A DNA stretch of 45,203 bases, taken from UHGV virus genome UHGV-0169311. One strand, given 5' to 3'. The stretch is from a virus. Below, in pieces: positions 10,657 to 15,655 of this stretch. Under the pieces are notes generated by a model. It was not told the origin of the DNA, ran no database searches, and saw only the letters and a list, made by a program, of their open reading frames with translations. The position numbers and the translations under genes were made by a program. The first letter of the stretch is position 1, and each line of letters begins with the position of its first letter.

Positions 10657-10740
10657 CCGGTTCAAAAATGGCGAAAGCCGCGGTGCTCGAACACCAACGG
10701 CTTTCAGGTGCAAAAACAGTGCGTAATTGCGGAGAACAGT

Positions 10741-11649
10741 ATGTCAAACACCGCTGAAATAATCAATTTCCCAAATAAAACCGAACAACCGGGAGGTCGT
10801 ATGGCCGACCTGTCGAACGGGTATACCAAGGTCGCTAACGAGATCCAACAGCTTAAGCCTCGCCTGAGACTGTCAGGCCGGGAATGGCAATGTTTTGAGG
10901 CGGTGATCTGGCTTACCTACGGCTGGAACAAGAAACAGGACCGCGTGACAAATACGGTTATTGCCGAGCTTACGGGCCTGAGCGATACGCATGTATCGGA
11001 CGCGCTTAAGTCTCTCGCAGAACGCAAAATCATCTTTTCACAGAAGCAGGGCATGATGAAAATCGTCGGTGTAAACACTGACCTTTCAGCATGGATTTTA
11101 GACAAACCGGAAACGGGAAGAAAATTCCCGAAAACGGGAAAATCCTTCCCGAAATCAGGAATAACCTTCCCGAAAACGGTAGACACCCAATACAAGAACA
11201 AGAACAGTATTAAAAGATCTTCGTCCGAGAATTCTGACGAATCCTCTGACGCACGTCTGAAGAAATTTTTATCAACTCATCCTGAAGCTGCGGTCTACAC
11301 ACCATCCGGTGCGAAGTGGGGCTCTGCTGAAGACCTCGAGACAGCTAAGTGGATTTCCTCCAGGGTGAAGCTGATTAACCCAACCTGCAAAGCCCCGGAC
11401 ATGACCTCCTGGTCTAACACTGTTCGCCTGATGCGCCAGATAGACAACCGGTCGCACCAGGACATCTGCGCGCTGTATGACTGGGCTAGCAAACACCACT
11501 TCTGGCAGACCAACATCCTGAGTCCCGAAAGCCTGCGTAAGCAGTGGGACAAGCTGACAATGCAGCGTAACGCCGGAGGTGAGCAGCGCGCTGTCAAGCC
11601 AGATCTGGACTTCAACAACACTGACTGGGCCTATGGGGTGATCCGATGA
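10741..11649 (+). CDS. O: Replication initiation protein O
   Basis: Start MSNTAEIINFPNK parallels lambda O MTNTAKILNF; TYGWNKKQDRVT motif; contains internal iterons. Confidence 0.8.
   Translation: MSNTAEIINFPNKTEQPGGRMADLSNGYTKVANEIQQLKPRLRLSGREWQCFEAVIWLTYGWNKKQDRVTNTVIAELTGLSDTHVSDALKSLAERKIIFSQKQGMMKIVGVNTDLSAWILDKPETGRKFPKTGKSFPKSGITFPKTVDTQYKNKNSIKRSSSENSDESSDARLKKFLSTHPEAAVYTPSGAKWGSAEDLETAKWISSRVKLINPTCKAPDMTSWSNTVRLMRQIDNRSHQDICALYDWASKHHFWQTNILSPESLRKQWDKLTMQRNAGGEQRAVKPDLDFNNTDWAYGVIR
11104..11182. repeat. Origin iterons: four ~16-bp repeats (TTCCCGAAAACGGGAA-like) at 21-bp spacing inside the O gene
   Basis: Copies at 11104, 11125, 11146, 11167; each is an imperfect palindrome; an A-rich tract follows. 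Analogous to ori-lambda within O. Confidence 0.6.
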
Positions 11650-12335
11650 AATCTCTTGCAGAGCAGATGCGTAACCACGACCGCGAGCAGATGAGCCGCA
11701 TGGCCCATAACCTGCCAGAGCAGTACCAGGAGTGCGCGCCGGTCGAGCAGGTGGCGCAGGTATTCAACAAGCTGTTCAACGAGCTGCGCGCCGCGTTCCC
11801 GGCCAGCATGGCGAACTTCCGCACCCAGGAAGACCTGAACGAATTCCGCCGTCAGTGGCTGCTGGCGTTTCAGGAGAACGGGATCCACACCATGGCTCAG
11901 GTCGATGCCGGCATGCACATTGCCCGCCGCCAGGAGCGCCCATTCCTGCCGTCGCCGGGCCAGTTCGTCGCCTGGTGCAAGCAGAGCGGCGGCGCGCTGG
12001 GCGTCAACGTTGACCAGGTGATCGCCGAATACTGGGACTGGCGTAACCGCTCGTTCGAATTCATCTCCAGCGAGCAATTTCCATGGTCGCAGCCGGTCAT
12101 GTACCACATTTGCGTAGAATTGCGCCACCGCAGCACCGAGCGCCAGTTAACGCATGGTGAACTGGCACGCGAGGCAGGCGATCTGCTGGACATGTGGGAA
12201 AGGCGCGTCACCGAGGGTAAGCCAGTGCCGCCGGTACGCCGGGCTATTGCCGCACCAGCTGCCGAGCAAGGGCCGACGCCGATCCAGCTGCTGCTGGCCA
12301 AGTACAACCGCAACAAGTCGAACGGGATGGTGTGA
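11646..12335 (+). CDS. P: Replication protein P (DnaB helicase loader)
   Basis: Strong colinear similarity to lambda P (MK..AEQM.N.DREQM ... RPFLPSPGQFVAWC) from memory. Confidence 0.85.
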   Translation: MKSLAEQMRNHDREQMSRMAHNLPEQYQECAPVEQVAQVFNKLFNELRAAFPASMANFRTQEDLNEFRRQWLLAFQENGIHTMAQVDAGMHIARRQERPFLPSPGQFVAWCKQSGGALGVNVDQVIAEYWDWRNRSFEFISSEQFPWSQPVMYHICVELRHRSTERQLTHGELAREAGDLLDMWERRVTEGKPVPPVRRAIAAPAAEQGPTPIQLLLAKYNRNKSNGMV

Positions 12336-12336
12336 C

Positions 12337-12681
12337 ATGAACATAACAATCCGTGAGCAGGTGCTGGCAGCCCTGCGCAACAACCCAGGGTTGAACAACG
12401 CCAAACTGGCAGGGCTTATCGGCATGGACACCAAAAAGATATCCGGAACGGTGAGCACGCTGCTGGCAGACGGCCTGATCCGCTGCGAAGGAAAATACGG
12501 CCAGCGCCTTTACAGCCTGACCAGCTACGGAATGCGCTTCGCCCCTGACACGATACCTGGCATGAAGCAGGGTAAGTCGAAGTTAATTCAGCGGACGGAC
12601 ACAAACGTGATCTGCCAGGAGTGCCGCAACAGCGCGGCGATGAGAAGGGTATTGATGGTTTGGGGGAGGGTAGGGGTATGA
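12337..12681 (+). CDS. Hypothetical protein (possible winged-helix)
   Basis: ATG at 12337, 1 nt after the P stop; track ORF 12154..12681 is its in-frame upstream extension inside P. Confidence 0.5.
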   Translation: MNITIREQVLAALRNNPGLNNAKLAGLIGMDTKKISGTVSTLLADGLIRCEGKYGQRLYSLTSYGMRFAPDTIPGMKQGKSKLIQRTDTNVICQECRNSAAMRRVLMVWGRVGV

Positions 12682-12875
12682 AAATCGAAGATATCAAAAA
12701 CGTTGCGGTGTTCTTCAATATGAACGGCAAGACAGTAGCGTTACGAATGGATGCTGAGCAGAAGCGGATCGTCGCATTAATGGCGCTTAACACGGCTGAT
12801 GCTCGGGCAGAACTGATTGAAGTGCCGCACATGACTTTACCAGCAGACCCAGCCATGGAGGAGGCCGCCCAATGA
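12678..12875 (+). CDS. Hypothetical protein
   Basis: ATG overlaps the upstream stop (ATGA); G-rich RBS; 65 aa. Confidence 0.45.
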   Translation: MKIEDIKNVAVFFNMNGKTVALRMDAEQKRIVALMALNTADARAELIEVPHMTLPADPAMEEAAQ

Positions 12876-13414
12876 GCAACATCGACAAACGTGGATTACG
12901 GGAAGCAGCGGAGAAGGCGACGAAAGGCCGGTGGGCTGTTGAGTTCGACGATGAGATTTACTCCACTGACGGCGTGAACCATGAGCAAATAGCCATGGTA
13001 TTCAGTGAAAACGAAGCGCGTGATGCTGCATTTATCGCCGCAGCCAACCCCGCCACCGTGCTGGCGCTGCTGGATGAGCTGGAAGCCGCAGAGAAGCGCA
13101 TAGCAGAACTGGAGGCGCGTTCATTCAATCCAGCAATTCTGGATGTGGTAGCCGAACGTCAGCGGCAACAGTCGGTTGAAGGATGGACTCCTGAACATGA
13201 CAACGCATATCAAAATAGCGAATTAGCAGATGCAGCGGCTTGTTACGCAATTCATGCGCACAACCAAGGTTTCTCCACTCCAGCACATTGGCCGTGGTCG
13301 CCTGATTGGTGGAAGCAATCAGGAGCACGCTGCGACTTGGTAAAAGCTGGCGCTCTTATTCTGGCAGAAATTGAACGCATTGACCGCGCAGCTGGCGTTG
13401 GAGTTCCTGCGTAA
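12872..13414 (+). CDS. Ead/Ea22-like protein
   Basis: N-terminus MSNIDKRGLREAAEKATKGRWAV ... AANPATVLALLDELEAAEKRIAELE typical of Ead/Ea22-like proteins (from memory). Confidence 0.55.
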   Translation: MSNIDKRGLREAAEKATKGRWAVEFDDEIYSTDGVNHEQIAMVFSENEARDAAFIAAANPATVLALLDELEAAEKRIAELEARSFNPAILDVVAERQRQQSVEGWTPEHDNAYQNSELADAAACYAIHAHNQGFSTPAHWPWSPDWWKQSGARCDLVKAGALILAEIERIDRAAGVGVPA

Positions 13415-13688
13415 GTACTGCGGTGAGGATTGCGACGGGCTGGTAGATATTGACAGAATCACTTTTCGCATCGTTGATATCGGTATGCGGATGCTGCAAC
13501 CGCACGAGCTATACCGCGCGCAGGGCTTCCCGGAGTGGTACATCATCGATCAGGACTATCGGGGGCAGAAGTACGCGAAGGACAAGCAGGTTGCGCGTTG
13601 TGGCAACGCAGTTCCGCCGCCATTCGCCGAGGCACTGGTGAGAGCTAATTTACCGGAGCTTTGTCAGCAGAAAGAGATCGCAGCTTAA
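13371..13688 (+). pseudogene. C-terminal fragment of a DNA (cytosine-5) methyltransferase
   Basis: RMLQPHELYRAQGFPEWY ... RCGNAVPPPFAEAL matches C5-methyltransferase motifs IX-X; no catalytic N-terminal motifs upstream; overlaps the Ead-like gene in another frame. Confidence 0.45.
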
Positions 13689-13787
13689 TGTCCGAGTTTC
13701 AGAACATGGTGTAACAAATCCTGCTACTTCAATGACGTAGATTCAAACCTGATATAATTAGTCTCTTCACAACACGAGGAGCCTAAA

Positions 13788-14024
13788 ATGCACCATTACA
13801 TGATCCCTATCAACGGAACTGTTCACCTGATCAAGACTGACTCTCTAATCCCTGAAGGGATTGAGTATAGCTTTGAAGGAGAAAGTCTAATCTGCGCTCA
13901 TGCCACTTTTAAATCTGGGACGTATGGCTTCCTGATACCAAAGGGAAATCAGTTGAATAGAGAGCATGCGTTCTGGCATGTAAGTGGAATTCACCCTAAT
14001 CCCCTGGGAATGGATAAATCGTAA
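13788..14024 (+). CDS. Hypothetical protein in an AT-rich insert
   Basis: 78 aa, RBS GAGGAG; lies between two diverged copies of the methyltransferase 3' end. Confidence 0.45.
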   Translation: MHHYMIPINGTVHLIKTDSLIPEGIEYSFEGESLICAHATFKSGTYGFLIPKGNQLNREHAFWHVSGIHPNPLGMDKS

Positions 14025-14216
14025 TCCATAATATGCATGCCATCGTCCTGAACATACGGTGGCATGCATCCGGCACTACAACAGAAACGTTAAAGTGCAA
14101 ACAATACAATTCGAGCAATATTCAACCTGTCACAGATGGCGAATACCACCGCCATTTCGTGCATTCTGTGGTTTCTATTACCCATTGCGTTAATGCTGTC
14201 CAATCATCAGCTCGCT

Positions 14217-14276
14217 GAGGCGCTGGTTAGGGCTAACCTACAGGAGCTTTGTCAGCAGAAACAAATAGCGGCGTAA
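14217..14276 (+). repeat. Diverged second copy (~80% identity) of the 60 bp at 13629..13688
   Basis: Both copies encode ...EALVRANL(P/Q)ELCQQK(E/Q)IAA-stop; the second has no methyltransferase body upstream. Confidence 0.6.
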
Positions 14277-14293
14277 TAAAACATCGCTAATTC

Positions 14294-14320
14294 AACCCGC
14301 TACGGCGGGTTTTCTTTTTT
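14294..14320 (+). terminator. Rho-independent terminator
   Basis: AACCCGC-TACG-GCGGGTT stem-loop followed by TTTCTTTTTTT. Confidence 0.6.
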
Positions 14321-14383
14321 TACTACTGACAGAAAATTAACAATTTGTGCTCTTAAAACGTTGATCATTTCCGCGCATAGGTA

Positions 14384-14403
14384 TACTGTATAAAAACACA
14401 GTA
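14384..14403. promoter_or_regulatory. LexA box (SOS operator)
   Basis: TACTGTATAAAAACACAGTA: perfect CTGT-N8-ACAG, 19 bp upstream of the dinI-like start. Confidence 0.7.
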
Positions 14404-14421
14404 CATGCAATTGGGGCCATT

Positions 14422-14655
14422 ATGAAAGTTGAATTAACCATTGATCGCATGAAAGAACTTCCTAAAGGCGCAGTACCAGCACTGGAGAAAGAACTGCTTA
14501 AGCGCCTGAATGATCACTATGACAATTGCAGGCTCACAATCCGCCGTGCCGGGGCCGATGGGTTAAGTGTTTTTGGTGGTGACAAGGACGATAAAAAGAA
14601 AATTGAATCAATCCTCCAGGATACCTGGGAAAGCGCTGACGACTGGTTTTATTAG
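14422..14655 (+). CDS. dinI: DinI-family protein
   Basis: 77 aa; colinear with E. coli DinI (MRIEVTI ... LSV.G..K.DK..I..ILQ.TWESADDWF) from memory. Confidence 0.8.
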   Translation: MKVELTIDRMKELPKGAVPALEKELLKRLNDHYDNCRLTIRRAGADGLSVFGGDKDDKKKIESILQDTWESADDWFY

Positions 14656-14772
14656 AATTGCGCTTAAGGCTGGCGCGCATTTTTCAGAATACCGCAATTT
14701 GCGTAACCCTCTGATGCTGCTGCCGACAATCTTTAATCGCGTCTGTTAGTCGCTCGAAGGGAGAACATAAAT

Positions 14773-15021
14773 GTGAGTGATTCAGCTTTGCAAACGTCAG
14801 AAGACAACTGGTATGACATTGTAAGAAGGTCTGACGGCTGCGTGGTGTTTAGCTTTCCTTCATCGGGCAGGCATCTAATTTATCGCGTCAATGGCATGGT
14901 TTCTATGCGGCCTTTGCTGGATGATGAAGAGGTCTTTACTCCTAATGGTTTTATGCAGTTTATTCACCGTCTCGGCTACCGGGTAACCCCACCTTCTGAT
15001 AATATGAAATCAACGGTCTGA
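14773..15021 (+). CDS. Hypothetical protein (GTG start); candidate antirepressor by context
   Basis: 82 aa, RBS GAAGGGAG; second gene of the LexA-box/dinI unit. Confidence 0.4.
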   Translation: MSDSALQTSEDNWYDIVRRSDGCVVFSFPSSGRHLIYRVNGMVSMRPLLDDEEVFTPNGFMQFIHRLGYRVTPPSDNMKSTV

Positions 15022-15055
15022 ACAACCGTAACCTACTGCGCCACGGAGAGAAACC

Positions 15056-15655
15056 ATGGCGCACGAACTACAACTCATCAAGCATTCCTCAGGAATCCTG
15101 ATCCCCGCTACGCCGGAGACCAGTGATTTACTGCAATCAAAAATCAAACTCGGCTCCGTACTGGTGGCTGAGTTCCGGCAGGTACGCAACCCGGCCTTTC
15201 ACCGTCGTTTCTTCGCGTTACTCAATCTCGGTTTCGAATACTGGGAACCCACCGGCGGGGCAATCTCCTCCAACGAACGCAAGCTGGTAACCGGCTATGC
15301 CAAGTTCCTTGCCTCATTCGCGGGAAGTGAAGCAGCACTCCTGGATGCTGCTGAGCAATATCTGGACCGCATCGCCGATAAGCGCGCCGGTAGTATCAGC
15401 ATCTGCAAATCCTATGACGCATACCGTGCATGGGTGATCATCGAGTCTGGCCACTACGACGCTATCCAGCTTCCTGACGGCACTCTTCGTAAACACCCCC
15501 GCAGCATTGCCTTCGCCAACATGGACGAAACCGAGTTCCAGCAGCTGTACAAAGCCGCGCTCGATGTTCTGTGGCGCTGGGTATTGTCCCGGGCATTCAA
15601 GGACCAGCGTGAAGCGGAAAACGCCGCATCGCAACTCATGAGCTTTGCGGGGTGA
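15056..15655 (+). CDS. Phage nin-region protein (DUF1367-like, from memory)
   Basis: 199-aa ORF with conventional start; MA..LQLIKHSSGILIPATPE N-terminus. Confidence 0.5.
   Translation: MAHELQLIKHSSGILIPATPETSDLLQSKIKLGSVLVAEFRQVRNPAFHRRFFALLNLGFEYWEPTGGAISSNERKLVTGYAKFLASFAGSEAALLDAAEQYLDRIADKRAGSISICKSYDAYRAWVIIESGHYDAIQLPDGTLRKHPRSIAFANMDETEFQQLYKAALDVLWRWVLSRAFKDQREAENAASQLMSFAG

Follow-up and report, generated by a model that had tools for sequence, protein, structure and literature searches.

A truncated C5-cytosine methyltransferase gene and a duplicated methyltransferase tail among lambdoid prophage accessory genes

The closest described counterpart of the locus analyzed here is the gp46–gp48 region of phage mEp237 (NC_019704 / JQ182730), which contains the same DNA from the methylase remnant tail through dinI at 99.4–99.7% identity, with a 78-codon ORF (orf78), a spacer, a second copy of the methylase tail (copy B), a terminator, a LexA box and dinI all in the same arrangement. 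The depositors of mEp237 had already described gp46 as 'similar to C-terminus' of a methylase and had left the second tail unannotated; a literature search on mEp237 returned no relevant paper. The DNA studied here, a 45,203-nucleotide stretch of the virus genome UHGV-0169311 (hereafter, the window), differs from mEp237 at the left joint: in mEp237, and in CUWW10 with the same downstream DNA, approximately codon 20 of an Ead gene is fused to the methylase 53 nt farther upstream, whereas the window retains nearly the whole Ead gene and changes over at the pentanucleotide CGCGC (13385–13389). The feature as a whole is a pseudogene with a recombination scar of a well-known kind, that is, ordinary lambdoid mosaicism, and it is already half-annotated, both in mEp237 and by PGAP.

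Intact methylase genes are found at the same position in several relatives, including two IMG/VR prophage contigs (L023 and L034, 627 aa), E. coli H5 (662 aa) and Klebsiella phage 5 LV-2017 (715 aa), with further examples in gp21 of Pectobacterium phage ZF40 and Met of Citrobacter phage phiNP. Like the gene in the window, these lie between the replication genes and ninB/Q and share motifs IX–X and the tail peptide; they differ in possessing the N-terminal half, with its AdoMet-binding and catalytic parts (PF00145 positions 4–115), which the window has lost. A DinI-family gene behind a LexA box is likewise familiar from the prophages Gifsy-1, Gifsy-2 and SEN34, whose dinI DNA is 83–91% identical to that of the window, the difference being that a methylase tail and a terminator precede dinI here.

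Morons and mosaic joints of lambdoid phages were reportedly described by Juhala et al. in 2000 and by Hendrix and colleagues. The segment containing orf78 resembles lambdoid morons in its lower G+C content and its position between conserved genes, where it would form an autonomous promoter-gene-terminator cassette (the promoter being putative here), and the joints of the locus resemble lambdoid mosaic joints in that the homology at them is short or imperfect. De Paepe et al. 2014 (PMC3945230) examined how phage recombinases carry out relaxed homologous recombination; they used 'HR trace' for partly identical sequence adjoining a recently exchanged block and noted that repeats are usually missing from phage genomes. 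Partly identical sequence beside a recently exchanged block is present in the window too, differing from the 'HR trace' of PMC3945230 in that the homology trace lies within one genome, as a direct repeat, and in that natural deletion products of this very repeat exist, with two different crossover points.

The methylase remnant and its joint with the Ead gene

The window is a lambdoid prophage and the locus lies in its accessory region between replication gene P and ninB, with all of the genes and elements described below on the + strand. Replication genes O and P (10708–12335) are followed by a Ren-like winged-helix gene, a 65-aa ORF and the 180-aa Ead/Ea22-like gene (12872–13414; Pfam PF13935, E 1e-20), and on the 3' side of the locus dinI is followed by an 82-aa ORF and ninB (15056–15655). 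The original prediction held that an ORF at 13371–13688 carries only the C-terminal motifs of a C5-methyltransferase, overlaps the Ead/Ea22-like gene in another frame and looks like a truncated gene, and all three points were borne out. The ORF is called mechanically from a TTG start inside the Ead gene. The ORF matches Pfam PF00145 at positions 270–320 of 324 only (E 1.2e-6, above the gathering score), TIGR00675 at positions 274–326 of 329, and the PADLOC methylase models at their C-terminal ends only. Motifs IX (QGFP, within RAQGFPEWY) and X (GNAVPP, within RCGNAVPPPF) are the only ones retained; the AdoMet-binding motif I (FxGxG) and the catalytic motif IV (PC dipeptide) are absent and lie inside the 527 deleted codons.

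The intact 627-codon methylase of L023 and L034 identifies the missing portion. In L023 the gene is an intact ORF with PF00145 positions 4–115 in residues 6–122, and its residues 528–627 are identical to residues 6–105 of the window ORF at 100 of 100 positions. The beheaded gene proper (13385–13688) thus consists of codons 528–627 and the stop of a 627-codon gene; 100 of the 627 codons remain and 84% of the methylase length is lost. The first five codons of the mechanically called ORF are out-of-frame Ead sequence, and its TTG start has no Shine-Dalgarno sequence. PGAP flags the equivalent E. coli stretch as 'incomplete; missing N-terminus' (pseudogene), and the recorded gene calls of public assemblies omit the ORF. 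Since the AdoMet-binding and catalytic motifs are lost and no credible translation start is left, we conclude from its sequence that the remnant is a dead gene.

We considered whether ORF 13371–13688 might instead encode a small protein with a function of its own, namely a free-standing C-terminal methylase subdomain under selection. The frame is open through the native stop codon, some length of the 3' end has been kept in many lineages, a 134-aa gp46 is annotated in mEp237, and the ORF is matched with E 4e-34 by phrog_13621, which groups short proteins (profile length 121). An open frame is nevertheless expected without selection in DNA encoding 100% identity to an intact gene, the length kept ranges from about 28 to 122 codons beside unrelated left neighbours, and the same-position relatives in Klebsiella, Pectobacterium and Citrobacter phages (575–717 aa) are full length, which together with the 100/100 match describes a truncated large enzyme and not a complete small protein family. 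Combined with the poor start, the out-of-frame first codons, the missing AdoMet-binding and catalytic motifs, the PGAP pseudogene flag and the omission from public gene calls, these observations make a functional small protein highly improbable, and phrog_13621 most likely collects such remnants, mEp237 gp46 among them.

Alignment to prophages with an intact methylase placed the truncation breakpoint at CGCGC (13385–13389). In three-way alignments this 5-nt microhomology, common to both parents, contains the right-hand crossover; it lies inside an imperfect 18-nt patch (13384–13401) at which 15–16 of 18 positions are identical between the Ead 3' end and the methylase. The Ead gene of the window is identical to those of L039 and KL53 up to 13389, and 13385 is where blastn first detects homology with the intact L023 gene. 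On the left, window 12260–13116 corresponds to L023 1–857; window 13117–13384 (268 nt) corresponds to the C-terminal half of Ead as it occurs in L039, H5 and KL53, which carry another allele; and on the right, window 13385–15100 corresponds to L023 3598–5313 with 99.8% identity. In the window lineage, 2.7 kb was replaced, with loss of four small genes and methylase codons 1–527. The last eight codons and the stop of the Ead gene are read out of frame from methylase-derived DNA; native Ead proteins end in ...RIDRAAGIG-KGE* or -VKGE*, from which five of the eight residues differ, so that all but the last five residues of the Ead protein are retained.

Other beheaded forms have their joints elsewhere. 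In addition to the mEp237 and CUWW10 form, the AR0118 type, found in 31 complete E. coli genomes, has a Ren-like N-terminus fused at the equivalent of window position 13520. The methylase occurs in 40 of 5,426 complete E. coli genomes, being full length in only four and truncated in the other 36. Neither these 5,426 genomes nor IMG/VR nor the GTDB representative genomes contained the joint of the window itself; an exact-protein look-up located its exact Ead fusion protein on at least 14 public contigs, of which one matches the window at 100% identity across 3.5 kb. Truncated copies retain about 28 to 122 codons next to differing left neighbours, and among the truncated copies seen none has its right-hand truncation endpoint in the first four-fifths of the methylase gene.

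Simple random deletion would not be expected to cluster the endpoints in the last fifth of the gene. One possibility is that the clustered endpoints reflect one-sided erosion of a pseudogene beside a hot spot of accessory-gene turnover and that the orf78 promoter shields the 3' side. The beheaded forms might also predominate because McrBC-positive hosts select against m5C methylases that are active; cells acquiring an m5C methylase gene are killed by McrBC (PMC2614495).

Two methylase tails and the orf78 cassette

The 3' end of the remnant gene (copy A, 13624–13689) recurs downstream as copy B (14212–14277), with 54 of 66 positions matching (82%) in the best register and a 19-nt identical core. 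The local alignment of the two copies, which are 588 nt apart, scores 36 compared with a maximum of 14.5 in 500 dinucleotide shuffles. The original prediction had placed the recurrence of 13629–13688 at 14217–14276 with approximately 80% identity and the same terminal peptide; we counted 49 matches in 60 bases and found nearly the same 20-residue peptide, the last 20 methylase codons being present in both copies and encoding AEALVRANLPELCQQKEIAA and AEALVRANLQELCQQKQIAA, respectively. Copy A is the in-frame native end of the intact L023 methylase. Copy B is identical over 14212–14272 to the methylase tail of strain MSB1_9D, an allele different from copy A. The repeats are only 82% identical while their flanks are 99–100% identical among relatives, implying that the two copies come from different alleles. 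A near-Chi octamer (GCTGGTGC or GCTGGTGA) is present in the tails of some alleles and absent from the window.

Between the copies lies orf78 (13788–14024), the cargo of the cassette, and the claim of a 78-aa ORF with a good ribosome-binding site holds, with GAGGAG located 6 nt upstream of the ATG. A putative promoter (13732–13758) consists of ATGACG, 15 nt and an extended –10 element, TGaTATAAT (13750–13758); a promoter for orf78 is annotated in mEp237, and the promoter region is about 95% conserved beside the 42%-identical orf78 allele of H5. The protein belongs to phrog_30079 (E 5e-48), a tiny family of enterobacterial prophages with about four true cluster representatives among 1.8 billion proteins. 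Its AF2 model, of moderate confidence (pLDDT 78), has five strands and one helix and gave no significant match in the PDB or BFVD; the protein had no match in PADLOC, Pfam or NCBIfam, and scanning genome contigs with an alignment of orf78 likewise gave no match.

The neighbourhood of orf78 in other prophages bears on where the cassette came from. In H5, L036, L037 and L039 an intact 662-aa methylase lies directly upstream of a 42%-identical orf78 allele, which has the same upstream region of about 70 nt, including TGaTATAAT; downstream of this allele come a terminator of its own and a theta-subunit homologue, and there is no second tail. Since orf78 is found behind intact methylases that have no second tail, copy A and orf78 are a native pair, and by this comparison orf78 is not foreign to the methylase.

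The cassette has the deviant base composition and the presence or absence among close relatives by which morons are recognized: the DNA between the copies has 43% G+C compared with 56% in the remnant, and the cassette is absent from four sister prophages and combined with other cargo in others. As to a promoter and terminator of its own, the putative extended –10 (13750–13758) and the predicted terminator (14294–14320) would serve, and a consensus promoter scan with spacers of 16–18 nt found none for orf78. The notion of an AT-rich insert is correct as to composition and fails as to specificity, because the dinI region downstream of copy B is equally AT-rich at 42% G+C and low G+C is therefore not particular to the DNA between the copies.

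The original prediction interpreted this arrangement as the scar of a moron exchanged inside a methylase gene. The duplicated 3' end is indeed a recombination scar. The data do not support the second half of the proposal, on which a moron entered, or was swapped within, a single methylase gene and split it, the repetition of the 3' end being the by-product of that insertion. Such an insertion would accommodate two methylase tails flanking a lower-G+C cassette with a promoter-like site and a ribosome-binding site, as well as the variable presence of the cassette among sister prophages. Copies produced by insertion into one gene would not be expected to be 82% identical when the flanks are 99–100% identical among relatives, and copy A is the native in-frame end of the L023 gene, orf78 being its native neighbour: H5 and L039 carry orf78 behind an intact methylase with no second tail, and L023 and L034 carry the cassette behind the intact gene. 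In addition, neither terminal inverted repeats nor a transposase ORF, as a transposon-type target-site duplication would call for, were found around the cassette, and cassette-less forms carry hybrid tails as predicted by deletion. We therefore consider an insertion inside the methylase very doubtful. Because L023 and L034 have the cassette and copy B behind an intact methylase, the truncation and the tail duplication are independent events.

A misassembly or chimera joining reads of two prophages could in theory duplicate a tail, in that repeats between related prophages can mislead assemblers. Nothing specific in the data favours it, and we give it next to no credence: the duplicated-tail structure is present in the finished phage mEp237, in 32 complete E. 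coli chromosomes and on about 25 IMG/VR contigs, and the window's own joint recurs in at least 14 contigs.

The second relic, the spacer and the dinI block

Similarity of copy B to methylase genes extends weakly for approximately 32 nt upstream, to about 14180, giving a second methylase relic of about 97 nt in total (14180–14277) that comprises a degenerate motif-X region (14180–14211) and copy B. The relic has a 1-nt insertion, an extra A, at 14209; in loci lacking the extra A (L026 and L025) it reads ITHCVNAVQSSLAEALVR... and aligns to methylase residues 631–662 with E 4e-12. Alignment anchored at copy B and continued upstream was better than shuffles; when the spacer (14025–14211) was aligned freely and locally with full methylase genes, its score did not exceed that of shuffles. 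From these alignments, we take relic B to be the end of a second, different methylase allele with a degenerate motif X.

Directly behind copy B is the intrinsic terminator that had been predicted to follow the cassette (14294–14320, consisting of 14294–14311 and a T-run), and next are a LexA box, TACTGTATAAAAACACAGTA (14384–14403; CTGT-N8-ACAG at 14386–14401, read from the sequence and conserved in relatives), and the dinI homologue (14422–14655; PF06183, E 3.8e-26). The dinI product scores 91.4 bits against NF007893 (E 4e-26), below the curated cutoff of 111 bits; it has both the PF06183 domain and the upstream LexA box that mark the DinI family, to which it is accordingly assigned as a predicted member. 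In Klebsiella phage 5 LV-2017, a full-length 715-aa methylase, a terminator directly after its stop, a LexA box and dinI are contiguous, and this arrangement is likely the original setting of relic B.

The spacer was found only together with the cassette in distant blastn searches of 5,426 E. coli genomes and 50,697 phage records, and orf78, the spacer and relic B form a unit that is maintained in loci about 10% diverged, even where DNA other than dinI follows. The spacer's resemblance to the KL53-type context of a 'terminator plus 99-nt remnant', assessed against simple mononucleotide shuffles, is weak and may be taken as a lead only. Just past the orf78 stop is a hairpin (14033–14069), an inverted repeat with a 14-bp stem and no T-run, which has been kept in diverged loci through one-sided changes only.

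These properties raised the question of whether 14025–14320 is kept as a functional RNA, in the form of a 3' UTR or sRNA of the orf78 transcript, or for a membrane peptide encoded by the ORF at 14136–14276. In favour of an RNA, the stretch travels with orf78 in the diverged loci even without downstream dinI, the hairpin stem tolerates wobble-type changes only, and the predicted fold of 14022–14320 is stable (z-score –4.9); the N-terminal half of the 46-aa ORF is hydrophobic, as a membrane peptide might be. Against these points, a compensatory change occurs in only 1 of 38 predicted pairs, with a covariation term of about 0, the best Rfam match has E 0.33 and assigns no family, and H5-type orf78 alleles do without the stretch and use their own terminator. 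The 46-aa ORF lacks a Shine-Dalgarno sequence, has accumulated 6 synonymous and 11 non-synonymous changes, has no ATG left in L031 and carries frameshifts in five loci. We rejected both candidates, a functional role of this kind being unlikely, and we continue to read the stretch as a spacer and methylase relic that lie between orf78 and the dinI block.

Loss of the cassette, proposed history and implications

Four complete E. coli genomes (AR0119, GPEC60, WEM25 and M172-1) lack orf78, and all four have the AR0118-type 5' joint and flanking variants in common. The single tail of each is an exact in-register A/B hybrid, with its left part from A and its right part from B, which is the pattern by which a deletion through direct-repeat (homeologous) recombination is recognized. 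In AR0119, GPEC60 and WEM25 the sequence is that of A through CAGCAGAAA and that of B thereafter, the switch falling in the 19-nt core, whereas in M172-1 the change from A to B comes at GAGGC, about 40 nt before that core crossover. At least two separate losses are implied by these crossover points, both of them perfectly in register, and comparison of these relatives thus shows that the cassette was, as far as the hybrid tails record it, deleted at least twice by recombination between the tails. Red-type recombinases recombine 12%-diverged sequences that share only short identical stretches (PMC3945230). The opposite direction, in which the cassette-less form is ancestral and the cassette was gained by homologous recombination, could in principle apply; it would require two pre-existing tails that happened to be exact A/B mosaics.

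Taken together, we think it probable that the locus records three separate recombination events in a lambdoid accessory region. In the oldest of these, two modules, each consisting of a methylase and downstream cargo, would have been joined: module A with a large C5-methylase and its usual neighbour orf78 under its own extended –10 promoter, and module B with the tail of another methylase allele, the terminator and the LexA-controlled dinI. This joining would have left approximately 97 nt of the second methylase (relic B, 14180–14277) behind orf78, and its product would persist with the intact 627-aa methylase in L023 and L034. The order assigned to this first event is inferred from present-day forms; no parent with a full-length B-type methylase joined to the present dinI block was found. 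The second event, which is recent and to which the alignments across the Ead joint attest, is the replacement of 2.7 kb by the C-terminal half of another Ead allele with a crossover at CGCGC. The third, evidenced in relatives of the window, is the in-register recombination of the tails that deletes orf78 and leaves an A/B hybrid.

In its present working state, orf78 would be transcribed from its own promoter and terminated at 14294–14320, with relic B in the 3' untranslated region, dinI would be LexA-repressed and SOS-induced, and the methylase remnant would be inert. The presence of orf78 is unstable as a result of the position of the cassette between two 82%-identical methylase tails. More speculatively, the last ~60–100 nt of the methylase may act as a portable recombination linker through which cargo (orf78, the theta-subunit homologue or dinI) is swapped, with the beheadings selected and not neutral. 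We hold this to be a minority possibility; were it true, selection against an active m5C methylase in McrBC/Mrr hosts would be at work while the tail anchors the cargo and its promoter.

The main value of these results lies in annotation and in the bookkeeping of phage evolution, and they introduce no new kind of system. For annotation, 13371–13688 is better called a pseudogene, and judging by the lost motifs no prophage-specific cytosine methylation would be expected from it. For phage evolution, the natural forms run from the intact gene through three versions beheaded at different points to two independent deletions mediated by the repeat, which makes the locus an unusually complete example of the formation and resolution of lambdoid joints where homology is very short or imperfect.

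Truncation endpoints and the Ead/Ea22-like mosaic

Every truncated copy of the C5-cytosine methyltransferase (methylase) gene among the related prophage loci compared with the window (L001-L040) retains approximately 28 to 122 C-terminal codons, with nine different breakpoints, each next to a different left neighbour and all confined to the final fifth of the gene. The Ead/Ea22-like protein encoded at 12872-13414 is itself a mosaic, in which the N-terminal ~80 codons match the lineage of phage mEp237 and L023, an IMG/VR contig with an intact 627-aa methylase, and the C-terminal half matches that of strain H5, L039 and KL53. The match to the Pfam Ead_Ea22 profile is limited to residues 2-88.

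orf78 and its flanks

Similar prophages carry variable cargo 3' of the methylase tail (loci L009, L008, L035, L006 and L002). The 78-aa gene orf78 (13788-14024) is accompanied by a homologue of the DNA polymerase III theta subunit in strains H5 and MSB1_9D and by both theta and dinI in L035, while KL53 and Klebsiella phage 5 LV-2017 have dinI alone. Comparison of two orf78 alleles (window 13700-13760, L009 3300-3365) revealed that the ~70 nt 5' of the gene, including the putative extended -10 TGaTATAAT, are ~95% identical, whereas the proteins share only 42% identity. This contrast suggests that the region is regulatory and conserved, or else that a recombination boundary lies at the start codon. 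Nine nucleotides past the orf78 stop codon begins a palindrome with a 14-bp stem and no T-run (ATGCATGCCATCGT...ACGGTGGCATGCAT, 14033-14069). It is retained in loci diverged by ~10%, where the changes are of wobble type only, and could stabilise the RNA or provide a binding site.

From copy B to dinI

An ORF of 46 aa whose N-terminal half is hydrophobic (MANTTAISCILWFLLPIALMLSNH..., 14136-14276) extends into copy B, the tail of a second methylase allele. Across loci it shows 6 synonymous versus 11 non-synonymous changes. Because L031 has lost its ATG and five loci carry frameshifts, we consider that this ORF is probably not a gene. Farther downstream, a perfect LexA box (TACTGTATAAAAACACAGTA, 14384-14403) lies 18 nt 5' of the prophage dinI start codon, and Klebsiella phage 5 LV-2017 retains a conserved variant of it. 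The prophage dinI is probably under SOS control.
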